Positions 1 to 61,122 of a stretch of DNA of 64,000 nucleotides are shown piece after piece. A program made the translations under genes and the position numbers. The notes below the pieces were generated by a model. The model made no database searches. It saw nothing but the letters and a program-made list of their open reading frames with translations, and was not told the origin of the DNA. Position 1 is the stretch's first letter. Each line of letters begins with the position of its first letter. Where the stretch lies: the IMG/VR virus record IMGVR_UViG_3300031227_000032, positions 1-64,000 of that record; one strand, written 5' to 3'. This DNA comes from a virus.

Positions 1-154
1 TTATTCAGTGCCTCTATGCGATATTTGAGCGCCATGCTTGCAGAGCCGTACTCAAATGCCAGAGTGCACAGTTCACGCACCAGCTTTTCAATCTCAGCGT
101 GAATCTCAGCGCTAGTCATTCCGCCTCCAGCAGCCCCGATATGCACGTCAGCCA

Positions 155-8906: not shown

Positions 8907-8928
8907 GTCACCTCCAATGTCTAGTTAG

Positions 8929-9081: not shown

Positions 9082-9657
9082 TTATGATTCGCCCGCAGGC
9101 TGCTTATCCTTCAACTTGAACGTCACCGTAGGCTGGTCAGTGACGGTTACGCCCAGTGCCTCCAGCGCAGGACGCCCCTTGCGTGCCATGTAATCACGCG
9201 CTCGCGGAGTGTCCAGGCTGGCGACAGTTGAGGTCATGGCGACGTTTTCCTTTACTGCCGCCGTTGCATCAGCGCCCAGCTTGAGCGCAGGTTCACGATT
9301 CGGATTATGCGTGTACTGTCCGATATGCTCCGAGTGCTCGCCCTTCCAGAAGCGATGCGACTTGCCAATGTCCACCGGCACTTCGCCTGCGATGAGCGGC
9401 GCGTACACATTCAGCATTTTAAGTATACGCGATTTGTAGCCTTTCGCCTGCGCAGCGTGGTACTTAGCTGCAGCCTCGTGGTCTTGCTGTTGCGCGGCAA
9501 TGGCAGCGATCAGCTTGTCAAGCTCATCTGCGGAGTCAGGTTGCCAGAACGGTACTTCGGGGTTATCCGGCACGGTGTCAACGCCTTCGATCACGCCGTC
9601 TACAAGCTGTCCGCGTGTGGCGAGGTTGATTGTGATTACACGTCGTTGAATGTCCAT
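9082..9657 (-). CDS. Gam-like / gp157-like coiled-coil protein
   Basis: Coiled-coil core; position next to SSB; C-terminal LGVTV..TVTFKL. Confidence 0.4.
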   Translation of the reverse strand: MDIQRRVITINLATRGQLVDGVIEGVDTVPDNPEVPFWQPDSADELDKLIAAIAAQQQDHEAAAKYHAAQAKGYKSRILKMLNVYAPLIAGEVPVDIGKSHRFWKGEHSEHIGQYTHNPNREPALKLGADATAAVKENVAMTSTVASLDTPRARDYMARKGRPALEALGVTVTDQPTVTFKLKDKQPAGES

Positions 9658-39512: not shown

Positions 39513-40373
39513 TTAGCTCAGTATCGCGGTAGACGACTGTATATCGAATGCCAGCTCATAGCCGTTGCCAAGTTTCATCTTTGACGGCGACTCAACATCG
39601 CCTGGAATACTCGCTAGCCATCCGGTGTAATCCTTGAAGTATGCGTCTATATCCAGGTCGGGAACCGTACTCACTGCTAAATCTTCGATGTACAGCGTGG
39701 ATTGATTCTCCCACCAATACCACAGCAATGATAGGTTAGGCTGGCCTTGCGGCGTGGATTGATTATCGCCCGTAGCTCTCGTCTGACACCGCACGCTTAA
39801 CGCCGTTACTCCGGTGTTGACAATATCACGCTTTCGCAACGTGCCGCCAGTATCTTTGTACTGACGATTCGATGCAAGTGTAGGCTTCACGTCAAGGCGA
39901 TTCTGCAGCGTCATGTTACGCAGCCAGTTTAGAAACTTGCCGGTAGTGGTATAGCTTGCGATGGTGAGCTTGATCCAATACGCATCTGTGCCGTCAATGG
40001 TATCCTTGCCCCACGCCGACGCGCCGGGTGGATTCTGCACCGCAACGTAGCCGTCCGCCGTGAATCCATTAGTGGAATCATGAAACGGATTGCTACCATT
40101 GAATGCAGTCCAACCGGCAGCGCCGTTACTATACGCCCATGTGATAGCCCCCACCACAGGCGCTGTATCCCCCACGCGGTAGCCAAAGGTGCCCGGTATG
40201 GCATCCCAGCCTAGATACATAATATCGCTATCAGCAGACCACAGCGCATTACCAGCGCCCGTCAGGTCGTTTACATCGCTATCATAATCGTCAGCAACCG
40301 AGCCGCCCGAATCGCGTCTGCAGTATTCGGGGTAATCGTCAGTTTGCGTAATGCGTACTTCTTTACGTGACAT
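39513..40373 (-). CDS. Distal tail (Dit-like) protein
   Basis: Directly after tape measure; D.TNGF..DG / YW.K insert domain. Confidence 0.5.
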   Translation of the reverse strand: MSRKEVRITQTDDYPEYCRRDSGGSVADDYDSDVNDLTGAGNALWSADSDIMYLGWDAIPGTFGYRVGDTAPVVGAITWAYSNGAAGWTAFNGSNPFHDSTNGFTADGYVAVQNPPGASAWGKDTIDGTDAYWIKLTIASYTTTGKFLNWLRNMTLQNRLDVKPTLASNRQYKDTGGTLRKRDIVNTGVTALSVRCQTRATGDNQSTPQGQPNLSLLWYWWENQSTLYIEDLAVSTVPDLDIDAYFKDYTGWLASIPGDVESPSKMKLGNGYELAFDIQSSTAILS

Positions 40374-43300
40374 TTAATAACCCGTCGTGCGCATTTGCCC
40401 ACGTAGTGTATTGCCGCGCGATACTTGCTGTAACCGTTGCGCTTTCGTGACGTTCAGCATTTCTGACAGCAGCCGTTCGCGTTCATTGTTAGTATCGAAT
40501 ACATAGATCGGATTGCTGGTAGACTCGCCACGGTTTTTCTTGCCGCCGAATAGTCCGCCGAATAGTGCTGATATTCCAGCGCCCAGGAATCCGCCGATGA
40601 CAGGCCCGAAGCCGCCCATGCTACCAAAGCTGGACGTGATAGCCTGTGTGAGTGGCTGTACAATCGCGTCCGCCACGCCTGACCAATCGTTAGTGCTTAC
40701 CGCTGTGAATAGTGCATCGCCTAGCTGCGCGGTGAATAGCGTAGCCGTCTGCTGTGCTTGCTGTGCGATTTGCTCAGTAGCTCCACCAGTAGCGCCCAGA
40801 CCGGACGCATCAGCCGTGCCTCAACCGCCAGGGCCGCAAGCCGCATTACTTTCGCCGTATGTAGGATCATACCCACCGGCCATAATGCCGATACCGCGCA
40901 TCTCCAAGCCGAGTGCTGCAGCCCCAACGCCCATGTGTGATTGTTGAGCAACAGCGCCTAGTGCCCGTCCGCCAATGTCAGCAGGGGTGTTACGAATCCA
41001 ACCTGCGCTATCACTACCACCCGACTGGGCGGCCACATCAGCGGCTAGACTTAACGCATCATTAACTGTCCGCTTGGCCGTTGCCAGTGAGCCTATTAAT
41101 GATCGCTCGATAGCATCAGTAACCGCCATAATCGAAGCCACTGATGCGGTCTGCATTGCAGTAAACGCACTGACCATTTCAGTATGCAGATCAGTAACGC
41201 GCTGTAAGACACGTGGCACGGATTCATCTACAGTGTCATAAATCCCTTTCCACATGTCAGGCCAGATTGAATGGCCTACAATGAGATCCCACGCCCATTG
41301 AAATGGAGCCACTACGTTCTTTGCGAATGTCTCGATCTCTTTAACGACCTTGCCTACAAATTCAGTTACGGTAGCCCATATGCCATCCCACAAGCCAACC
41401 CAGAACTCCGTTATATCAGTATTGACGTTTTCGAACCATTCAGTAATATCATCAATGAAGCCAGATATAAACTCGCCAGTATTAGCAGCAATTGTATCAG
41501 CAGTATCGGCGATAGTTTGCCATGCTCCCGACCAATCGCCAGTAATCAATTTCAGCCCAACCTCGAAGATACCACCGACAATAGCAAGCGCGTTTTTAAC
41601 AACAAGTTTGATCGCATTCCATACGGTTGAAATGACAAGCTTAATGCTTTCCCACACAATGCTAACAGCGGCCATGAACGGCGGCCCCCACTTATCCCAT
41701 ATGATCTTGATAGCATCCAACGTAACGCTAAATGCTTCTTTAATCAGTGGCCAGTTTTTCATCCACCAATCAATGATCGGCTGTACTAACTCCAGCGCCT
41801 CAGCGCCAAGCCAACCGAATACCTCACCGGCTTTATCCCTTATGGCAGTGAGTGTCGGACTGATTTTATCCTTGACTTCCTGAATCTTTTCTGCGAACGC
41901 GCTAGCCTTTTGTTCACCCTCAGTCAACGGCCCGACGAATCCGTCAGCAGGTGCTTTGCCTGTCAACGCATCCCATGCTGCGCGAACTGTTTCAATCCTT
42001 TCGGCCAGAACTTGCGCGCTAACCTCCGCCTCACTCAATGGCCCGATAAATCCCGACTGAATCTTATCCGGCCCCTGCCCAGTCAATGCCAGCCATGCCG
42101 CCTTGACAACATCCATAGCCTGTGCTATCTGCGGGAAGTTGCTGTCAGCAAATGATTTAATCTTACCCCAGTTGGCGATGATCAACGCACCGCCCGCCAC
42201 AATAGCAGCTACAGCAATCCCGATAGGGCCAGTCATGGCGGTAAATGCAACACCAATACCTGGCGCGGCAGCTACTATGTTCCCAATGATCATCAGCAAC
42301 GGGCCAAGTGAAGCTACCACTCCGGCGGCAATCACTCCGAAATTCAATAATACTGGATTGGTTTTTGCCAGATTTTGCACGAACGGTATTGCGGCTTCAA
42401 CTAATGAGACAAAGCCGTCAAGCAGTCCGCTGTCTGAGATTGACAAGCCTAAGCCCTGCACTGCTGAACTGAGTCGCGTCAATACCGGCGTTACTTCTGT
42501 AGCGATCCGCGCAGCCGTGCCAGCCGAGGCCAGGTTCGCCTCAGATAGTCTTTCTAGTGCCGCGCTGCCCTGATTCACCAATGCGGCCATAGCTGGCCCT
42601 GCACGCTGTCCAAAAATAGTCATAAGCTCAGCGGTTCTTTCCACTTCGCCCATGCCTTCCAATCCCTCTTCAAACTGCGCGATGATATCAACAAGCGGCA
42701 GCATAGCACCATCCGCACCTTCAATACTAACTTTGAGTTTCTTAAGGGATGCAGTGGCCTTTGCGCCTGGATTGATCAGTAGCGATATAGCGGTCTTGAG
42801 TGACGTACCCGCCATGCTTCCCTGAATACCAGCGTTACCTAACAGACCAACAGCGGCAGCGACCTCTTCAAACACAAGCCCAGATGATGATGCAATCGGG
42901 CCTACGAACTTCATTGATTCGCCAAGCATCCGCAGATCAACATTGGCGCTAGTGAATGTGTTAGTCATTACATCCGCTACGCGCGTCATTTCAGTGGCCT
43001 CAAGGCCGAAACCAGTCAGGATGTTAGACGCAATATCGGCAGTAGTCGCTAGATCAATCTGACCAGCGGCGGCAGCGTTCAACACACCGGGCAACGCGCC
43101 GATAATATCCACAGCCTTGAAGCCCGCCATTGCGAGGAAGCTCTGTGCATCAGCGGCTTGCTTGGCTGTAAACGCCGTGGTCTCGCCAAGCATTTTGGAC
43201 TGCTTACGTAGCTTCGCAAACTCTTCAGCGGTGGCACCTGACAATGCACGCACGCGATTCATCGAGTTCTGAAAGTCAATGCCGAGCTTAATGATCGCAG

Positions 43301-43502
43301 CGCCGACGCCGACGATAGGCAACGTCAAGCCCATCGTCATTTTTCTGCCGACGCCCGCCATCTGACTGCCCGTCTTTTTCCACGCGGCGGCTGTCTTTTG
43401 CGCAGCAGTGACGCCCTTTTTACCAGCGTCAGTCAGCGGCTTGCTGAGCTTGTCTTTCAGCTCTAGTACAACCTCTAAGATTTTCTGATCAGTGTTTGCC
43501 AT
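40374..43502 (-). CDS. Tail tape measure protein (TP901 type), 1042 aa if the in-frame TGA at 40821-40823 is read through
   Basis: PhageMin_Tail core (FTAKQAADAQSFLAMAG, GIQGSMAGT), W/F helical repeats; frame stays open past TGA into a typical TMP Gly-rich C-terminus (GGFLGAGISALFGGLFG), TAA abutting the next ATG. Confidence 0.85.
40784..40820 (-). promoter_or_regulatory. Putative bacterial SECIS after TMP UGA
   Basis: UGA-12nt-GCGUCC-GGUCU-GGGCGC; GGUCU at +22..+26. Confidence 0.65.
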
Positions 43503-43845
43503 TCTTTTTACTGCTCGCCTTTTCTTTAGCCGCGTCAAGCTCGGCTATTTTTCTGTCAATCACGCCCATCGCAGATATGTACCAAACAGGTTGATCCTCA
43601 AGCCCGCCTGCACGGAATGAGAATCCATTTTTGTAATGAGCATATAGCCCATTCAAGTAAACGCTCAGTTCGGATACATCTTTCCACGGGCAGTGGGTAG
43701 CATAGATAGGCTCTATGCAATCCCCCACCCGTCGCTCGTCAATCTGCAGCATCCCATCTGTACAACCTACTCTACAGTTAGCTTCGTCAAAGTTGCATCC
43801 GGAACATCGGTCTCCGATTCCGTGCTGGAGTTTGATGTAAAATTT
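43489..43845 (-). CDS. Tail assembly chaperone T domain (-1 frameshift product)
   Basis: GGLEDQP.WY motif; -1 frame open from the slippery site to the stop. Confidence 0.7.
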   Translation of the reverse strand, partial: KFYIKLQHGIGDRCSGCNFDEANCRVGCTDGMLQIDERRVGDCIEPIYATHCPWKDVSELSVYLNGLYAHYKNGFSFRAGGLEDQPVWYISAMGVIDRKIAELDAAKEKASSKKNGKH

Positions 43846-44222
43846 ACATCGGCAGTTTCCTCCTTATTCAGCCCGCCGATAGCCTCACTGACTGTAAGTG
43901 CGATATTCGTAATCAACTCCAGCGGAAGGCGCTTCATTGATGCCTTGTCAATAACATCCTCACGCTCCCCGCAAACCTTGACCTTCTCGAACGTCGGTTT
44001 GAAATCCTCACCGTCGTCTTGCAATCCTTCGATGTCAGTCAACATCAACTTAACCAGCATGTAATTCAGCTCGCCGCCGTTCACTTCGCCGTGCTTATCA
44101 GTGACATTGCCGATCAGCCAGAATTGCATACGGTTATCAATGTCGCGGATTTGGTAGCGCACACTATCATCGCATTCAGCGGTGAACCATCCACCGGTTA
44201 CTTTTGGGGACAATACTTGCAT
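43767..44222 (-). CDS. Tail assembly chaperone G
   Basis: Between major tail and TMP; slippery A-AAT-TTT at 43839..43845. Confidence 0.75.
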   Translation of the reverse strand: MQVLSPKVTGGWFTAECDDSVRYQIRDIDNRMQFWLIGNVTDKHGEVNGGELNYMLVKLMLTDIEGLQDDGEDFKPTFEKVKVCGEREDVIDKASMKRLPLELITNIALTVSEAIGGLNKEETADVNFTSNSSTESETDVPDATLTKLTVE

Positions 44223-47513: not shown

Positions 47514-48432
47514 GATTGAGGTATTGTGCAACTTCGTATACGCCGGTAGACTGGATACTATTCAGCTTGTTTGTAAGTACAGTTTGATAATCTTCGTTGA
47601 CTAACTTTATGCCGTCCGTCAGCTCTGACAATCGGAATACGCCTGACGGATGTTCATGTATGGGCGGGATGCCAGCGTGATATACCGCCCTGCCCGCCAT
47701 AAGCGCCTCGTATCCAGCGGTAGAGTTGATTGTTACTACCGCATCACACCTTGCTAAATCCTTAGCGTAGGGGCGCTTCATTTGCCAATCGTCGGTTACT
47801 GAGATTTCAACGCCGTCTATCGGATCGCTGAGCATCGGATCAGGATACCACGTTATGTCTGCTGTAAACTCTTTATTCTGTAGCGCAACGCATTTAGGAT
47901 GCGGTCGATATGTCAGCTTTGCGTTAGGTAATATTGTAGACACTTCGGCTACAAGTGTAGATGAATTGTATCCATTGCCGCCGTATGCTAGTGATTGATC
48001 GCTCTGTATCTGTCCAACGATAAGCACGCTTTTAATCTCAGCGTCAGTCTGTAGCGCGGGTTTAGTCGCTATGTATTGCTGCGAGGTCATCGCACGCTGA
48101 AATGTATCTTCGGTGTACAGCGCCCAGTCGAATCTATCGCCTGCATAATGACTAGCGTAGGGTAACGCATAATGCCAGTAGTGTATACCAGCATCGCGGA
48201 ATGCCTGTCGCCGTGCATCATCATGGTCAACGTATTCCATGGCGAGTACTGTATCAATACCGCGCTCTATGCAATCAGCAACGCTATCATCTTCCAGCAG
48301 CCACAACTCGCCGAATGATTTAAGCAACGTCGGCATACGGACTGTATCGGGATGATCGAAGCGCCCGCGTAAATGCGGCATGATGGCAATGTGGCGGTGT
48401 TGTAGCTCGCTGTTAGTGTGGAGTAGTTTCAT
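47449..48432 (-). CDS. Capsule_synth (KpsC/KpsS-like) glycosyltransferase-fold protein
   Basis: GQ..SD.S, YRPHP, VVTINSTAGYEAL..G..V...G. Confidence 0.7.
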   Translation of the reverse strand: MKLLHTNSELQHRHIAIMPHLRGRFDHPDTVRMPTLLKSFGELWLLEDDSVADCIERGIDTVLAMEYVDHDDARRQAFRDAGIHYWHYALPYASHYAGDRFDWALYTEDTFQRAMTSQQYIATKPALQTDAEIKSVLIVGQIQSDQSLAYGGNGYNSSTLVAEVSTILPNAKLTYRPHPKCVALQNKEFTADITWYPDPMLSDPIDGVEISVTDDWQMKRPYAKDLARCDAVVTINSTAGYEALMAGRAVYHAGIPPIHEHPSGVFRLSELTDGIKLVNEDYQTVLTNKLNSIQSTGVYEVAQYLNHEYLLRTYYAHRHIRCAATGN

Positions 48433-49564
48433 TTATCTCGCCAAACAAACTTCGCTGTTGAGTCCGCTTCTTTGCCAACTCTGCATACTCCGGGTTAAGC
48501 TCGATCCCTACCCACTGCCTGCCCAATGTCTCGGCTACTTCGCCTGTCGTGCCGCTGCCGAAGAACGGGTCTAGCACTATGCCGCCTTCAGGACACCCCG
48601 CCAGTATGCATCGCCGTGGTATCTCAGGCGGGAACACTGCGAAGTGCGCGCCGCTGTAGGGCTTGGTAGCGATTGTCCAGACGTTGCGGGCGTTGCGGGT
48701 TTCACCTCTGCCGCTGAGCATTGCTCGAGTACCCTGCTTGCTGGTGTCTGATGCTCGAGATAGGCTATCGCCTTTGTGCGCGATATTCCCGCCGAGCCGC
48801 TGATAGCATTGCCGCATGCCCGGGAAGTTCACATCTGTTTGATTAGGTTCGCTGATCGCATCCGCGTCATACCAATAATCCATTCCCCGCCACAGGTTAA
48901 TCCGCCGCCAGTCTGCCATCATTACTTCGGGTGGCTCAACGTCGGTTTCCTCTCTGGTGTGTTTATTGATCCATCGGTAATCCGTCAGATGCACGTATGA
49001 CCACTCACGGGAATCACGGTGTCGCCAGACGGTTGTGTTACCACTCTTGGTCAGCAGGTAGATATGCTCATGCGCTGACGTTGGGCGATCCTTGCAACTC
49101 TCGGGCATCGGGTTAGGCTTTGCCCAGATGATGTCACTACGCAGCCACCAGCCGTCAGCCCGCAGCGCCAGGGCTACACGGGCGGGGATCATGCACAGGT
49201 CTTTGGGTTTGAGTCCTGGGGGTAGTTTGCGCCGTGGCAATGCAGTTCCTTCCGCTTGCCCAATGTTACGACCAGTGGTGCTGTTCGCCCCTTGTTTGCC
49301 TGTCATACATCCAACGCTGTAGCTATCCCCCAGGTTCAGCCAGCATGTGCCCTCGGGTTTTAGCACGCGCCGCACTTCGGCGAACACCGCTACCATCTTG
49401 GCGACATATTCATCCGGCGTGGATTCAAGGCCGATCTGCTCATCGTTGCCATAGTCACGCAAGCCCCAGTAAGGCGGACTGGTCACACAGCAATCAATGG
49501 AATCAGCAGCCATGCCGCGCAGGATTTCGATACAGTCGCCAACGCGGATGGTGTTAGTCTCCAT
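48413..49564 (-). CDS. DNA N4-cytosine/N6-adenine methyltransferase (beta class)
   Basis: TSPPY, IIWAKPNPMP, HFAVFP, VLDPFFGSGTT. Confidence 0.9.
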   Translation of the reverse strand: METNTIRVGDCIEILRGMAADSIDCCVTSPPYWGLRDYGNDEQIGLESTPDEYVAKMVAVFAEVRRVLKPEGTCWLNLGDSYSVGCMTGKQGANSTTGRNIGQAEGTALPRRKLPPGLKPKDLCMIPARVALALRADGWWLRSDIIWAKPNPMPESCKDRPTSAHEHIYLLTKSGNTTVWRHRDSREWSYVHLTDYRWINKHTREETDVEPPEVMMADWRRINLWRGMDYWYDADAISEPNQTDVNFPGMRQCYQRLGGNIAHKGDSLSRASDTSKQGTRAMLSGRGETRNARNVWTIATKPYSGAHFAVFPPEIPRRCILAGCPEGGIVLDPFFGSGTTGEVAETLGRQWVGIELNPEYAELAKKRTQQRSLFGEINETTPH

Positions 49565-50439: not shown

Positions 50440-50661
50440 TTACTCTACTCTGCGCTTGACTCCAGCGCAATACACATAACGTGGTTTATCACTGCTGTAC
50501 ATGCCGTCAAACTCCGCGCGTGATTCGGGCTTGCGCAGTGCGGCCTTGCGGCGTTTCAGCTTGTCAATCACGTTATCAACCTCATGCCACGAGCGCGGGT
50601 CGATGCCGCCTAAGCTGAACTCCAGATCAGAGATTGTAGCGTCAATGTCGCGTTTAGTCAT
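50440..50661 (-). CDS. Small hypothetical protein
   Basis: ATGA overlap with upstream gene. Confidence 0.5.
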   Translation of the reverse strand: MTKRDIDATISDLEFSLGGIDPRSWHEVDNVIDKLKRRKAALRKPESRAEFDGMYSSDKPRYVYCAGVKRRVE

Positions 50662-50924
50662 CGCAGACTGCTCTCAGTGATGTTCATTTCCTTTGCGAAC
50701 TCCAATATATCCGTCGTGATGTTCCCCGCCTCATCTGTGCAATTGTTAGCAACGGCGGTTCGCAAGTCACCCTCAAGCCGATTCAGCCGCGCCTCGCCGT
50801 CATTAACCCATTGCGTTGTTTCGTCAATGCCAGGGACATTGCCAGCCCACTCAATCATACCACGTTTATCATCAATGGTGGCATGCATAGATGCGATATA
50901 ACGCTCAATTAAATTATTATCCAT
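50658..50924 (-). CDS. Hypothetical protein, predicted leaderless
   Basis: TTGACA(50959)-17-TATGAT-6nt-ATG. Confidence 0.6.
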   Translation of the reverse strand: MDNNLIERYIASMHATIDDKRGMIEWAGNVPGIDETTQWVNDGEARLNRLEGDLRTAVANNCTDEAGNITTDILEFAKEMNITESSLR

Positions 50925-50963
50925 ACCACCATCATACCACACTACCGAGCATTTGTCAACCCC

Positions 50964-51758
50964 TCATCGCGCATCCTGTTTCCATGCCGCGCGTTTCGCG
51001 CAGGTATCCAGTGCATCAGCTTGGGCAATGTTCGCCGCCCCGATCTTGTCAACCTGCGCCGCCGCCTCGTTTGCTGTATCATGCACTGAGAATGTAAGCC
51101 CATATCCGCCGTGCCAAACAAGTTCATACCAAATGGCGCGGTAACGGGTTTCGTCTAATGCGTTCGTCTCGGCGATGATCTCTGGCAGTATGCGTAGGAA
51201 ACGCTGATGGTCAGGCATTTTAGTATATGGCGTCTCACTGTAATAATCAATATCATTGGCGTGGCTTACCTGATCAATGTGTTCGGCATGTTCGAGCGCC
51301 GCCAGCATGCTTTCAAATCCTAACCTTTTGATAACCGCCTTTTTCCAGTCCCAGCAACTGCCGCCATCAGTGAAACCTCAACCGCCAGATGATGATGATG
51401 TTCCTTTCTGCACACCTCCCCAATAAATATCATATTGATCGCCGTCTTTGATTATCCATGCTGGCTTATGCAAATCACTCAATGCGCATTTAGCAACATA
51501 TGTGGTACGTTGTGTATTGCATAATGAATATCGGATAGCGTATATTGGGAGCGCACATAATACCAATATACACAGGGCCATAATGACTATACATATCGTT
51601 GATCCCACACAGGCGACTTCAGACATCTCATGCCCATCTGCCGCAGATTGGGTAATGTATGCGTATTGTGGCCCTGCCACTTCATCACACGAACAAGTTA
51701 GCGTAACTATCAGCAATATACTGATTAACGCAACTGCAAATTGCAAATGTTTGTTCAT
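50964..51758 (-). CDS. Membrane protein, 264 aa if the in-frame TGA at 51378-51380 is read through; paralog of 51791..52270
   Basis: Leaderless start; frame open across TGA into 50964..51308; both halves resemble parts of the intact neighbour. Confidence 0.6.
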
Positions 51759-51790
51759 GCTTACACTATACCACACTCCGCGCCGTTTGT

Positions 51791-52270
51791 CTAGTACCAC
51801 GTATCTCTTTTCTTTGCAATGATATCATCTTGCTTAGCCTGCAGCCTTTGGGCTAAATCCTGCTCCGCTAATTGCCGTGTGGCGTGAATAGTTTGAACCA
51901 CTTCACACCATTCATACTGCTCTGACCATGAAGATGTACCACAGCCGTCTATGGTATCACTGCCGTGCGTGTAGTGATTCGTTTCAGACTTTAACTCATA
52001 TACGCACACTGCGTAACGCTGCTCGCCTAGCTCATTTTGCTCAGTTTCAATCCACGGGTCTCTGGCAAGGTCTTTCACTCTGACGGCGCGTTTACGGGCG
52101 CAATAACGGATTATTGCAATCCCACCGAATATTGATAATACCATTATCCCTGATGCGACTACTATGTACAGCAGATTGCCAGACGCGAGCGGTGGTATCA
52201 AGCATAGCGGACATACCAATAAAAGCATTCCGATTATAATAGTTTCATCACTCATGCCATATGTGTCCAT
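51791..52270 (-). CDS. Two-TM membrane protein, predicted leaderless
   Basis: TTGACA(52305)-17-TATGAT-6nt-ATG; hydrophobic N-terminus. Confidence 0.65.
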   Translation of the reverse strand: MDTYGMSDETIIIGMLLLVCPLCLIPPLASGNLLYIVVASGIMVLSIFGGIAIIRYCARKRAVRVKDLARDPWIETEQNELGEQRYAVCVYELKSETNHYTHGSDTIDGCGTSSWSEQYEWCEVVQTIHATRQLAEQDLAQRLQAKQDDIIAKKRDTWY

Positions 52271-52301
52271 ACTACCATCATACCACACTATCGCGCTTTT
52301 G

Positions 52302-53540
52302 TCAACCCCAGACCACGCATTCATCACGCATCCTGTTTATCCACGTCAGCAGTTGCCAGTAATCCAACTCCAGCCCATGCGCAATATCCAGCACTGACAG
52401 CCTGCCGTCCAGCAAATCGAGCACGTCGGCGTATTTCAGATTGAGTTGCCGATCCTGTCGCCAGTCTACCCATAGCCCATGCTTCGATAAACAGATCGGC
52501 CCTTGCCCCGTGCGTTGCGGATACCAGTCGCTATCCATCATATCCAGCAGATCAGCAACGCGGTTAGCGGCGTCCATTATCAAGCTGGGGTGTAGGCGCT
52601 CCGCAGTGTCCAGGCTCGTGTGATAGCCGTAATATGGCACCTCACCTTTCGCCCAGCAACGCGCACGGCTTATACTGACAGCTGGGATGCCGACGTTGTT
52701 ATACACCTTTTCATCATTGCTTACAACGGTGCGGTATGGCTCGGCCTCATCACAGACCAGCACGCCAGCTTTGTCAATCAGCGATTCATCGAACGGCGAG
52801 TGCTGTAATACTAGCCTGTTATCATTGCCCAGCATATCCAGCGCGATAGCGTAGCGGATGTTATGCTGCTCGTTCGCCAAGTATGCGATAGTGCCGATGG
52901 TCTCAGGTAGCCACAGAAATCTCAACCCATACTTACGCGGCGTATCGCGGAGTCGCTTCACAAGCTCGACCATCGCAACGCAACCTGACGCATCATCGTT
53001 CGCCTGCATCGGATGGCAGACGTGCGCTGTCAGCACAATCTCGGCGTCAAGCGTGCCAGGTAGGTACACCTCGCCGATGGCAAGTTCGCCGTCGCTAAAC
53101 TCGCTGTCGATAAGCACGCGGTATTCGTCAGCATCGAACTCGTGTAGGCGGTCATGCTGAATGCAGAATGCCCACGCTGGTTCGTAGTATGAAAACTCAA
53201 ACGGGATACCCGCTGGGCAATCCTCACGACTGCGCACATGTTTCATCAGCTCGTTATGGCTGATCGCAGTATCGACCGCCGTGCTGTAGCTCATCACGTG
53301 CAGCGGATGGTCGTCAGTGGATACGATGATACTACCGTCGGGACGTGCGATGTATGCTGTGCGGCACTCCCACTTCGGCGGTATCGTCCAGTCCCATACC
53401 TCACTGCCGGTCGGGTAGCGATGTATTTGCAGCTCCGGTAGGCGTGCGGCAATCGCGCCAAGTGCCGTATCGTAGCCGTCTGAGATGAGGTCACGGCGGT
53501 ATGCGCTGATTTCGTGAAGTAGGTTTTGCATAGTTGACAT
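52302..53540 (-). CDS. DUF4910 aminopeptidase-like protein with C-terminal winged helix
   Basis: WTIP..W, LHV.SYS, IP...SYY...W.FC, H.CHP.QAND..SG, PETIG, YHTS.D. Confidence 0.85.
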   Translation of the reverse strand: MSTMQNLLHEISAYRRDLISDGYDTALGAIAARLPELQIHRYPTGSEVWDWTIPPKWECRTAYIARPDGSIIVSTDDHPLHVMSYSTAVDTAISHNELMKHVRSREDCPAGIPFEFSYYEPAWAFCIQHDRLHEFDADEYRVLIDSEFSDGELAIGEVYLPGTLDAEIVLTAHVCHPMQANDDASGCVAMVELVKRLRDTPRKYGLRFLWLPETIGTIAYLANEQHNIRYAIALDMLGNDNRLVLQHSPFDESLIDKAGVLVCDEAEPYRTVVSNDEKVYNNVGIPAVSISRARCWAKGEVPYYGYHTSLDTAERLHPSLIMDAANRVADLLDMMDSDWYPQRTGQGPICLSKHGLWVDWRQDRQLNLKYADVLDLLDGRLSVLDIAHGLELDYWQLLTWINRMRDECVVWG

Positions 53541-58878: not shown

Positions 58879-59766
58879 TTAAGTTTTCGGGCGTAATTGT
58901 TTATCACCTGGTAGCATCGGTGACAATCCGCAACGGCATTGAATGTCAAACGCAGCCTTGCCGCTCAGCATCGGCCCTTCGATGAAACCGACCTGATTGA
59001 ATGTATCAAACAGCCCGTCCGCATCCGTCACGGCTCCGTCCATGACGATGTGACTGTACATGTCTTTGCCACCGCCACGTACTAAGCTATCGCGTGCCGT
59101 TAGCCACTCTGAACGTATCACAACATCCAAGTATTCGGCGGACTGTTTGTAACCTTCAAGCTCTGCTTTAATGTCCGCACGTCCGACTTCGGTTCTAGCA
59201 ATAGCGTTGCTACGCGGTTGTGTGATCGCATCAGTCTTGCCTGACCATTCGGCGTATTTCTCACTGATTGCTTTCGATGTAACCTTGAAGCCCTGATCTG
59301 CAGTATCAGCGATGATGACCTCTAACTTTGCCGCGCTGGTTTTGTCAATCAGGTTAGAGCGTATATGTAAATTCTCAGTAAGCCACTTCCGGAAGTCAGG
59401 GCGATCAGGTGCGAACGCCGGTAGCTTTTCCGCTGCCAGTACTGCAACCTCATCGACTGCCAACTGCCCGAACTCAGCTACTAACTCAGCTTGCAATGGG
59501 CCAATGATCGCAGCATACGCGGCATTTTCCACTTCAGGATTCAGCAACGGCTTAGGCTTATCAGCGCGTGTCTGTGCGGTCTTGAGTACCCGCGCCTCCT
59601 GACCTACCCAGTATTTTTCAATGCCCGCCTTGTAGCGTTCCTGCCACGGCTCGCGTATCTTATCCTGATCGGCTAATCGCTCCTCACGATCAGCCAGCGT
59701 TGGATACTTACTGCTGGGGAATGTAGGCTCATCGCCTATATCGTCATCGACCCGATGACTTGGCAC
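58879..59766 (-). CDS. MuF/gp7-like head morphogenesis domain (likely C-terminal part of a portal fusion)
   Basis: IARTE, W.T.RD..VR..H...DG, QCRC; in frame with the portal and no well-spaced RBS. Confidence 0.8.
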   Translation of the reverse strand: MPSHRVDDDIGDEPTFPSSKYPTLADREERLADQDKIREPWQERYKAGIEKYWVGQEARVLKTAQTRADKPKPLLNPEVENAAYAAIIGPLQAELVAEFGQLAVDEVAVLAAEKLPAFAPDRPDFRKWLTENLHIRSNLIDKTSAAKLEVIIADTADQGFKVTSKAISEKYAEWSGKTDAITQPRSNAIARTEVGRADIKAELEGYKQSAEYLDVVIRSEWLTARDSLVRGGGKDMYSHIVMDGAVTDADGLFDTFNQVGFIEGPMLSGKAAFDIQCRCGLSPMLPGDKQLRPKT

Positions 59767-59769
59767 GCC
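59731..59769 (-). promoter_or_regulatory. Putative bacterial SECIS after portal UGA
   Basis: UGA-10nt-GUCAUCG-GGU-CGAUGAC perfect 7-bp stem. Confidence 0.65.
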
Positions 59770-61122
59770 TCATCCGCAGGTTTCCAGATACGAACGCATA
59801 GCGCGCGCCGCCTCTTTTGTTTCATTCTCTTCGGTATCGACTCCGATCTCCTCTGGCTGGAGTTGTTTCAATGTATCTGGCAGTCTGATATACGGCTTGT
59901 TCAACGGGTTATCCGGATCGTCAGGCTCGATCATTTCAAGCCCGCTGGCTTCGCGCTTTTCGTTCGGGGTCATCCAATCGCTGTTAGCAAGGTTGTGCAC
60001 TCGTTCCGTTACGTTATCCTGCAGCGCGTTGATTCCGCTTACAATCGGTAACAGCTTTACATCATCTTCAAGCCCCATCTTAGGTAACACAAACTCTGCA
60101 AACTCCTCGCGGAATAAGCGATGCAATGGCAATACTGTATTCTCATAGAGGAATCGTTCAGCGGACTCGACATTGTTATACGTTGATGATTTGTCATCGC
60201 CGACTAACTGTGACGGCACGCCCAGCGCCGCGCAGATATGCCGCATTGTCACACCAGCGCCGCTAGTCCAGTCCATCTCTTTCGGGCTATGCGCGAGTGC
60301 CATATAGTTAGACTTCTCGCCGTCAATGAAAGCCGTCGCGCCTGCGTTAGATGCACCGCTGAACTTATCGTTGTAATCCTGCTCAATGCGTGCGCGCACT
60401 TGCGGAGTCAGTGAACTCCAACCCGTAATCTGCAACACACCGCCTGGTACTGCACTATTAGTAAGTAGCTTAGAGTTCCAAGCTAGCTGTAGGTTGCTGG
60501 TATCAATGTCCGTCGCTGCAGCATTCAATGGTGATAATCCAAACATCGGATGCGCAGGATCGGTGAACTTCACGTTATACATTTCGTCAGGCGTCAGATA
60601 GCGTTTATTGCCAATGCCTGTTTCGATAACGTACCGACTGACTGTGCGATTATCTGTGGTTTCAATCGTCACGCGGTCAGGCAATTCGAGATACATTTCA
60701 GGTGCGGTCTTGGGTTGCGTCTTGCCATTAGTCGTGCGCTTGCCAATGCCGATACCTTCGATGTATGTGATACCGGCAAGGTGAAGCTGATTAGACCACA
60801 GCGCGATGAACTCGTGATAGCCTTGATTCGGATTGAAGCGCTGCACTAAGTTGTACAACGGCTTGACGCGCGGGGCTATATCATCCTGCGTTACAATCTC
60901 GCCCTCATACTCGATGCCGATTGGTACTGCGCAAAGGCCGTTGCCGATTACCCGCAAGCAGGCATATACAATCGGATTGTGCCGATACGCCTCTTTGTAA
61001 AACTCATTGAATCGGCGCGCGCGAAACTCAGCACTGACACCGTTAGTATCCTGAATCGTCAGAACCTTAGCGCGCAACATCGACCGTAGTATGAAGTTTT
61101 GGAATCGTTGTTTAAGGTTCAT
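59770..61122 (-). CDS. HK97-family portal protein (747-aa portal-MuF fusion if TGA is read through)
   Basis: VYAC..VI, PN, GLSPL, PGGVL, GASNAG, ICAALGVP, TYNN.E, TPNE.R. Confidence 0.92.
   Translation of the reverse strand: MNLKQRFQNFILRSMLRAKVLTIQDTNGVSAEFRARRFNEFYKEAYRHNPIVYACLRVIGNGLCAVPIGIEYEGEIVTQDDIAPRVKPLYNLVQRFNPNQGYHEFIALWSNQLHLAGITYIEGIGIGKRTTNGKTQPKTAPEMYLELPDRVTIETTDNRTVSRYVIETGIGNKRYLTPDEMYNVKFTDPAHPMFGLSPLNAAATDIDTSNLQLAWNSKLLTNSAVPGGVLQITGWSSLTPQVRARIEQDYNDKFSGASNAGATAFIDGEKSNYMALAHSPKEMDWTSGAGVTMRHICAALGVPSQLVGDDKSSTYNNVESAERFLYENTVLPLHRLFREEFAEFVLPKMGLEDDVKLLPIVSGINALQDNVTERVHNLANSDWMTPNEKREASGLEMIEPDDPDNPLNKPYIRLPDTLKQLQPEEIGVDTEENETKEAARAMRSYLETCG

Follow-up and report, generated by a model that had tools for sequence, protein, structure and literature searches.

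The window analysed here comprises the first 64 kb of an IMG/VR virus record of 72.5 kb (G+C 51.5%), a phage record that has most of its genes on the minus strand. On that strand it holds a gene for a tape measure protein (TMP) that is interrupted in frame by a TGA. We argue that this codon, UGA-894, is likely to be decoded as selenocysteine (Sec), because the TGA is conserved in other TMP lineages, because it pairs in position with a Cys of related TMPs, because it is followed by a hairpin with a loop in the register of the Escherichia coli fdhF Sec insertion sequence (SECIS), and because it is not explained by an error in the sequence. A preliminary description of this DNA had proposed a Sec codon with an fdhF-like SECIS, and all the comparative tests that we ran support the proposal. 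The alignment to homologues that it had called for gave a CxxxxC motif at the matching position and a TGA in four other lineages. Neither of the two findings by which it said the proposal would fall was obtained: independent assemblies retain the TGA, which argues against a sequencing error, and the C-terminal part is carried fused in 5 of 20 non-self homologues and has no usable start of its own in the window.

Direct reading of the minus strand gave ...NAACGPGG-TGA-GTADASG... around the TGA (Table 1). Counted from the ATG at 43502, the Cys is residue 889 and the TGA is codon 894; a TTG at 43538 is an alternative start for the same open reading frame (ORF). The frame then stays open up to a TAA that touches the ATG of the next ORF. 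The first ATG, GTG or TTG in frame past the TGA is a GTG at 40676, 49 codons on. This GTG is the codon for V in the conserved DWSGVAD motif, and the only purine run before it, AGG, ends 1 nt upstream, so that it lacks a properly spaced ribosome-binding site. The preliminary description was accurate in all these respects, that is, in the CGPGG context, the residue number, the 148 open codons, the abutting TAA and the GTG without a ribosome-binding site. It had also called the next gene Dit, and this was not borne out, as the ORF at 39513-40373 has no Pfam or PHROGs match. The TMP itself matched Pfam family PF10145 (PhageMin_Tail) over residues 111-310 with an E-value of 8.2e-47 and 160.1 bits, above the curated cut-off of 33.2, which places the ORF in the tape measure family. 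Its tblastn matches were annotated tape measure proteins and covered only W-rich TMP repeats at less than 30% identity. The 893-residue product is on record as protein P0002. The part encoded past the TGA comprises, in this order, a Gly/Gln-rich linker, a helix with the DWSGVAD motif, a hydrophobic Gly-zipper helix, a basic patch with an NPIY motif and a final helix.

Table 1. Features of the tape measure locus, in window coordinates
Feature	Coordinates	Strand	Remarks
TMP residues 1-893 (table 11 call)	40824..43502	-	ATG at 43502; from the ORF list, translation and Pfam PF10145
Cys889 codon TGC	40836..40838	-	no other Cys codon in the 1042-codon readthrough gene; the TGA follows 5 codons on
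In-frame TGA, proposed Sec codon 894	40821..40823	-	context GGU-UGA-GGC
Proposed SECIS hairpin	40792..40808	-	GCGUCC +16..+21, loop GGUCU +22..+26, GGGCGC +27..+32
148 codons after the TGA, C-terminal TMP module	40377..40820	-	from translation and homologues
DWSGVAD motif, residues 939-945	40668..40688	-	invariant in alignments A4 and A5; includes GTG 40676
TAA, true stop of the 1042-codon gene	40374..40376	-	abuts the ATG (40373) of the next ORF, 39513-40373

We found the arrangement Cys-x4-TGA-Gly in the TMP genes of four other phage lineages, in one of them twice, which makes five lineages and six TMP sites in total. A protein-based scan of viral contigs gave L001, in which a TMP ORF of 858 codons ends ...GLLGGCGPGG-TGA-GVPSPQDEG... 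and is followed by the same C-terminal module. When viral contigs were scanned with the DNA pattern CGPGG-TGA-GG, 75 stretches matched, six of which lie in TMP genes (three contigs with the L001 sequence, plus L051, L027 and L076); the other 69 looked out of frame or had short frames. The two contigs L027 and L076 belong to another TMP family, which is lambda-H-like. Two sites occur in L051, CVGDG-TGA and CGPGG-TGA, 61 codons apart (8909-8911 and 9092-9094), and a separate hairpin follows each of them. From metagenome contigs, a protein-based scan gave L284, which reads CGSGG-TGA-GGG. Full-length comparison of the window, L051 and L001 TMPs gave identities of 41-45% (L001 41%, L051 45%), and in their alignment CGPGG-U-G is invariant amid flanks rich in insertions and deletions. 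Of these, L001, L284 and the first L051 site alone testify to the motif independently of the DNA pattern.

Among 80 loci recovered as TMP relatives via the N-terminal domain, the site was present in one (the L044 contig, met before), and the other 79 had other C-termini or contig ends. The DWSGVAD word was present in L281-L283 and L287/L288 with neither the Cys motif nor a TGA, and no Cys motif was seen in L294 and L295, two relatives of the L027 type. Across viral loci, the combination of an in-frame stop, a hairpin and a nearby Cys was found at 18 of 342 TGA, 0 of 116 TAA and 0 of 169 TAG codons, a scan that we do not count as evidence: the loci had been chosen for these sites, most of the TGA matches are redundant copies and three look like antisense chance matches.

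We collected homologues of the region by an exhaustive HMMER search (E <= 0.001), using as query 275 residues around the TGA, read as Cys. The 22 proteins obtained were the two split products of the window and 20 non-self homologues. Five of the latter carry the module at the C-terminus of proteins of 684-1083 residues, and 15 are short proteins of 87-225 residues. The TMPs of this set are nearly free of Cys (Table 2). At all six TMP sites a Cys lies 5 residues upstream of the TGA, and in a MAFFT alignment the TGA was aligned to the second Cys of CTDGSC, CTDSQC and CSSGTC. The pairing of the TGA with a Cys is judged by the position of the motif, which we regard as strong, and by a MAFFT alignment across a variable linker, and not by alignment statistics.

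Table 2. Cys and proposed Sec (U) residues of TMPs with the C-terminal module, and distance from the second residue of the pair to the DW/NW motif
Protein	Length	Cys and U residues	Residues to DW/NW motif
Window TMP	1042 aa	C889, U894 (only these)	45
P0012	783 aa	C632, C637 (only these)	44
P0016	808 aa	C641, C646 (only these)	52
L001	1027 aa	C854, U859 (plus C585)	56
L284	partial	C916, U921 (plus C597)	54
L051, second site	1145 aa	C987, U992	43
P0014	1083 aa	CxxxxC C883, C888, plus C312	156
P0013	684 aa	CxxC C527, C530	41
P0023	936 aa	no Cys	not applicable

A published rule for new selenoproteins asks for at least two Cys homologues and no fewer than two distinct sequences that share a conserved TGA (PMC1088965). 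As the rule is worded in the part of that paper cited here, the TMP has both the Cys homologues and the conserved TGA.

At each of the six TMP sites, the UGA is followed by a hairpin of 5-7 bp that begins at +14..+16 and has GG or GU in its loop (Table 3; the window hairpin is in Table 1). This geometry and the GG/GU loop are kept between lineages, and the stem sequences and encoded peptides are unrelated. We defined a qualifying hairpin as one with a stem of at least 5 bp, at most one GU pair, a start at +13..+17 and a loop of 3-6 nt with GG or GU. Such a hairpin was present at seven of eight candidate sites, namely the six TMP sites and a site in the portal gene of the window, which is described below together with the one that lacks it, the third site of the window. 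The background frequency was 1.9% over record positions (2761/144932) and 3.2% over the in-frame codons of three TMP genes (101/3166). Among ordinary ORF stops, a qualifying hairpin followed 2 of 58 TAA, 2 of 63 TAG and 4 of 71 TGA codons, and two of these four are candidate sites. The hairpin signal exceeds chance. Synonymous recoding retained a qualifying hairpin in 2.7-62% of trials per site (4.3% at the window site), and the product of these fractions over the seven sites is about 4e-7. Part of the hairpin signal thus sits in the choice of peptide, and the linker peptide, which is not conserved, is itself free for selection on RNA structure. A MAFFT alignment of five hairpins of 17-18 nt was aligned on the GG loop, with the stems in different registers and no single consensus structure.

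Table 3. Hairpins after the UGA at the other TMP sites
Site	Stem	Loop
L001	+14..20 / +24..30	GGA
L051, second site	+15..21 / +25..31	GGU
L051, first site	+15..19 / +23..27	GUU
L027	+16..20 / +27..31	CGUGUC
L284	+14..20 / +25..31	AGGU

The loop of the window hairpin is that of fdhF. In E. coli K-12, fdhF has an in-frame TGA at codon 140 and GGUCU at +22..+26, the letters and offsets being those of the window. Moreover, in both genes the in-frame UGA is followed by an intragenic hairpin and the frame runs on into a part of the protein that is essential or, in the TMP, would be so. The two hairpins differ in the stem. In fdhF the upper stem is interrupted by a bulged U (U17 in fdhF numbering) and the GGUC loop is closed by an A-U pair, whereas the window has a perfect, G+C-rich stem of 6 bp and a loop of 5 nt; of the features of an fdhF-type SECIS, it has the GGUC(U) loop and lacks the bulged U. 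The sequence and position of the hairpin, the fdhF offsets and the missing bulged U were all as the preliminary description had them. The proteins also differ, since fdhF encodes a cellular redox enzyme with Sec at the Mo centre and the TMP is a structural phage protein with Sec proposed in a disordered linker. A more general model of the bacterial SECIS (bSECIS) allows 3-9 nt in the loop, 4-16 bp in the upper stem, a G in the first two loop positions (mostly GG or GU) and a distance from UGA to loop of 16-37 nt (PMC13188914). All sites fit this model, as set out in the part cited here, in loop, stem, position of the G and spacing, the free-energy term not being applied. The distance from UGA to loop is 18 nt in the window, with its 6-bp stem, and 16-18 nt at the other five TMP sites, with stems of 5-7 bp.

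Several observations weigh against decoding of UGA-894 as Sec. The reading draws on sequence comparison. The identity of the motif in L027 and L051 is there by construction, as the search pattern required CGPGG-TGA-GG. The BLASTP alignments with P0012 and P0016 begin at residue 65 of the fragment, short of the motif, and P0023, one of the five fused homologues, lacks Cys altogether. Two scans of viral sequences, one with P0014 and one with P0013, for the DNA of the Cys-form homologues were empty, and the comparison of hairpins between homologues covers the TGA forms. The hairpin criterion was written after the sites had been seen, and at three sites the peptide alone often gives a qualifying hairpin (L284 62%, portal 43%, second L051 site 26%). 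The 71 nt after the UGA fold with -23.3 kcal/mol against a mean of -24.1 for shuffled sequences (z 0.27), a test that is not informative for a hairpin of 17 nt. An Rfam scan of 40300-41000 (E <= 10) gave two chance matches and no SECIS family. Finally, neither selA, selB, selD nor a tRNA-Sec was found in the phage record, which is incomplete, and no tRNA-Sec was found in five related records, all of them incomplete. The host must therefore supply selA, selB, tRNA-Sec and selD, and its competence for Sec is assumed.

That no Sec genes were found in the phage record, and no tRNA-Sec in the related records searched, would also fit a programmed readthrough of the UGA that is independent of Sec, in which a suppressor or a near-cognate tRNA for Trp, Cys or Arg reads it at low frequency, perhaps aided by the hairpin. 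Such a mechanism predicts a fixed ratio of short (893 aa) to long (1042 aa) TMP, as for other viral readthrough proteins. It requires an open frame, a conserved TGA and a hairpin just as Sec insertion does, and since the TMP and the portal-MuF protein are both low-copy parts of the virion, a low yield would suffice. It leaves unexplained, however, why the TGA falls on the second Cys of the only Cys pair of the relatives, why a Cys lies 5 residues upstream at six of six TMP sites, and why the loop and its register match both the SelB-binding loop of fdhF and the bSECIS model. In addition, no tRNA gene, suppressor tRNAs included, was found in the window, and to our knowledge hairpin-stimulated readthrough is not established in bacteria, which also weighs against it. 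We consider this mechanism unlikely.

We also considered whether the TGA is a true stop, with the C-terminal module made as a separate protein by reinitiation or from an unusual start, or not made at all. Gene callers do divide the gene in this way, into P0002 (893 aa) and P0003 (100 aa, from GTG 40676), and both products are on record; moreover, 15 of the 20 non-self homologues of the module are short, and L001 has a GTG 3 nt past its TGA. The short database entries may, however, have arisen in their turn because a gene was split at a TGA or cut off where a contig ends. The window offers no ATG, GTG or TTG for 48 codons past the TGA, and the first one cuts a conserved domain. With the TGA at query position 127 and the GTG at 176, the stretches matched by HMMER start at 113-160, several of them before the GTG, and some cross the TGA, so that homology to other proteins begins upstream of the supposed start. 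The five fused homologues likewise speak for a single protein. So does a variant strain: a contig from run X3 spans 40696-40937 with five differences, and the six differences listed for X3 are all in third positions and synonymous in the TMP frame. Three of these (residues 907, 915 and 925) fall between the TGA and the first possible restart at the GTG, in what would be an untranslated gap, and this stretch is thus under coding constraint in the TMP frame. A split gene is, in our view, very improbable, and the last 148 residues are best taken as part of the TMP.

A genetic code in which UGA is sense, at least in late genes (Gly as in table 25, or Trp as in table 4), is close to refuted. The context is Gly-UGA-Gly at all three candidate sites of the window, and a Gly would suit the Gly-rich linker. 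But of the 93 ORFs in a greedy set for the record, 34 terminate at TGA, some of them ORFs overlapping the start of the next gene, which means that the phage uses TGA as a stop; the record does not treat TGA as sense throughout, and only three gene-like TGA junctions occur on the coding strand in 72.5 kb. The L051 TMP itself terminates at a TGA, the window has no detectable suppressor tRNA, and the relatives have Cys at the position rather than Gly or Trp.

The window stretch occurs in runs labelled salt lake metagenome. A fault in assembly or sequencing, or a nonsense mutation (TGY to TGA) that a defective phage acquired recently, would require only a single base change from TGC or TGT, in keeping with the aligned Cys of the relatives, but is refuted for practical purposes: the TGA is kept in two further runs from other studies, namely X3, from the variant strain, and X2, with a contig that spans 40736-41300 with 0 differences; it is present in four other lineages (41-45% identical or of another TMP family); and only synonymous change is seen downstream of it.

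Decoding of UGA-894 as Sec could proceed as follows. The hairpin, which lies 12 nt downstream of the UGA (+16..+32), would offer its GGUCU loop to host SelB carrying Sec-tRNA(Sec) at the UGA; Sec would be inserted, and translation would continue for 148 codons to give a TMP of 1042 residues. C889 and U894 would then lie in a flexible Gly-rich linker about 45 residues ahead of the conserved C-terminal module. In a structure predicted for the last 185 residues (mean predicted local distance difference test score, pLDDT, 61.7), the region of the motif is below 50, i.e., predicted to be disordered, and helices follow; in a protein atlas all scores were below 0.9 and gave leads only. The preliminary description had likened ACGPGGU, in this same motif region, to CGPxGC-type dithiol motifs, and a redox role of that type is no more than a possibility. 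By analogy with other TMPs, the module may reside in the tail tip and enter the host envelope. The C-x4-U pair would take the place of the C-x4-C pair of related TMPs, and would most likely form a selenylsulfide or bind a metal, within a chain or between TMP chains. Termination at the UGA would leave an 893-residue product that lacks the tip module, and tail assembly would therefore depend on the selenium supply and the Sec machinery of the host. We infer the identity of the inserted residue, the role of SelB, the chemistry of the pair and the uselessness of the truncated form from the comparisons above.

Searches for the host and for longer relatives gave few leads. A prophage search with the C-terminal module (A5) gave no match in any of 5 named genomes, 400 genomes scored from the class of G006 and 401 from the phylum of G007. 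When genome contigs were scanned for the pattern, none of the matches listed, at least 120 in number, stood in a TMP context as judged by the flanking translations, and no host emerged. A search for longer proteins with alignment A5 gave nothing, and word-indexed protein searches returned only the window's own proteins. One homologue, P0004, has 142 residues and consists of the module only; it is the hypothetical protein HSW65420.1, encoded on a 56.7-kb contig of a Dissulfurispiraceae metagenome-assembled genome. P0004 may be the downstream half of another tape measure gene split at a TGA, and in that case would be a lead to the host lineage.

Sec is known from cellular redox enzymes. Most of the known bacterial families are enzymes akin to thiol oxidoreductases that have CxxU or UxxC in a folded active site, as described in the parts cited here of two surveys (Zhang, Fomenko and Gladyshev 2005, PMC1088965; PMC13188914). 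The criteria given there for predicted bacterial selenoprotein families apply equally to the TMP; unlike the known families, it has a C-x4-U in the Gly-rich linker of a virion protein. Among viruses, the relevant part of a 2021 review of recoding names only two selenoproteins, both poxvirus peroxidases (PMC8310308). These are the glutathione peroxidases of molluscum contagiosum and fowlpox viruses, in which the Sec-UGA is read by the host machinery and, in fowlpox, the SECIS sits within the coding region (PMC8310308). They resemble the TMP as proposed here in being encoded by a virus, in having a Sec-UGA and in relying on host machinery, but they are enzymes that eukaryotic viruses captured from cells, with a eukaryotic SECIS, and are not structural proteins of the virion.

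Recoding within genes for virion modules is known from the G/GT -1 frameshift of the tail chaperones and from the UGA readthrough that gives Qbeta A1. Like the TMP, these systems have low-copy structural targets, with a longer product made by some ribosomes. In both, however, the outcome is a standard residue or a shift of frame, and the identity of the residue is unimportant, whereas in the TMP the recoded position has a conserved Cys as its partner and stands where the relatives have a Cys. Our full-text literature searches found no paper on a phage selenoprotein, and the words phage, virus and viral are absent from the main text of a 2026 review of the prokaryotic selenoproteome (PMC13188914). 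The mechanism that we propose is already known from bacteria. The novelty lies in the carrier and its setting, a structural protein of the phage virion; the position of the motif, in a disordered linker instead of an active site; its recurrence in two TMP families; and, probably, its recurrence in the linker of the portal-MuF protein.

If UGA-894 is indeed a Sec codon, the TMP would be among the first selenium-containing proteins proposed for a bacteriophage particle, and a structural selenoprotein in the tail would mean that phages exploit the Sec machinery of their hosts. It would add a non-enzymatic C-x4-U motif embedded in a linker to selenoprotein biology, and would make phage production dependent on an environmental trace element. 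It would also explain those 'split' tape measure and portal genes of viral metagenomes that gene callers truncate at a TGA.

The second TGA junction of the window lies in the portal gene. The portal ORF (61122-59773, minus strand) ends ...YLETCG-TGA-GVPSHRVDD... and continues in frame into a MuF-like ORF at 58879-59766. The TGA site (59743-59772) has a perfect 7-bp hairpin at +14..+30 with the loop GGU. In the L001 and L051 records, portal and MuF form one uninterrupted ORF, of 759 and 768 codons, respectively; relative to these, the window protein has an insert of about 18 residues, and it is this insert that carries the Cys, the TGA and the hairpin. The portal-MuF junction is probably a second site of Sec insertion or readthrough, although translation may restart at a GTG 3 nt past the TGA. 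From the UGA onwards, 11 nt are identical between the portal site of the window (59762-59772) and the TMP site of L001 (3384-3394), both encoding U-G-V-P-S in genes that are unrelated, which hints at a common cassette or at a common constraint on the spacer.

The pattern was seen in two unrelated TMP families, in one gene at two sites, and also in the linker between portal and MuF of the phage studied here. We raise, tentatively and with more doubt than confidence, the idea that a portable Sec cassette has repeatedly been installed in flexible linkers of low-copy virion proteins in salt-lake phages. The cassette would consist of a Cys, one to four residues that are mostly Gly, the UGA, a Gly and a SelB-type hairpin. 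Selenylsulfide or diselenide links formed by such cassettes would covalently latch the tail-tip and portal assemblies, and the cassettes would make the production of virions hinge on the selenium status of the host and on its Sec machinery.

A third Gly-TGA-Gly junction, ...SSSSGG-TGA-GFTDGGSC..., lies at 51380-51378 on the minus strand, in a gene for a small membrane protein. This junction (51336-51380; ORFs 51378-51800 and 50964-51308) has a hairpin of only 4 bp, with the loop AGUU, and is the candidate site without a qualifying hairpin. Its two halves weakly match one neighbouring paralogue ORF (E 0.002 and 0.008). Three tandem small ORFs in 50658-52327 (minus strand) have similar N-termini, VDK/LDK...VWY..., and by this likeness look like paralogues of the small membrane protein. 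We rejected the ORF junction at 50964 as a fourth site, as the GTG of the downstream ORF opens the third paralogue and the boundary is an ordinary one.

The phage is far from those described, since 8 of 10 large late-region proteins scanned had no PHROG match. No close DNA relative of the window was found among cultured phages, and its portal protein is less than 30% identical to theirs. Immediately upstream of the TMP gene, at 43489-44222 on the minus strand, are two ORFs of 151 and 87 codons, the second of which overlaps the TMP start. The position directly upstream of a TMP gene is where the two tail assembly chaperones, made with a programmed frameshift, are usually encoded. A gene for a DNA methyltransferase (48413-49564, minus strand; PHROG 67, E 1.2e-79) lies within the block of late structural genes.

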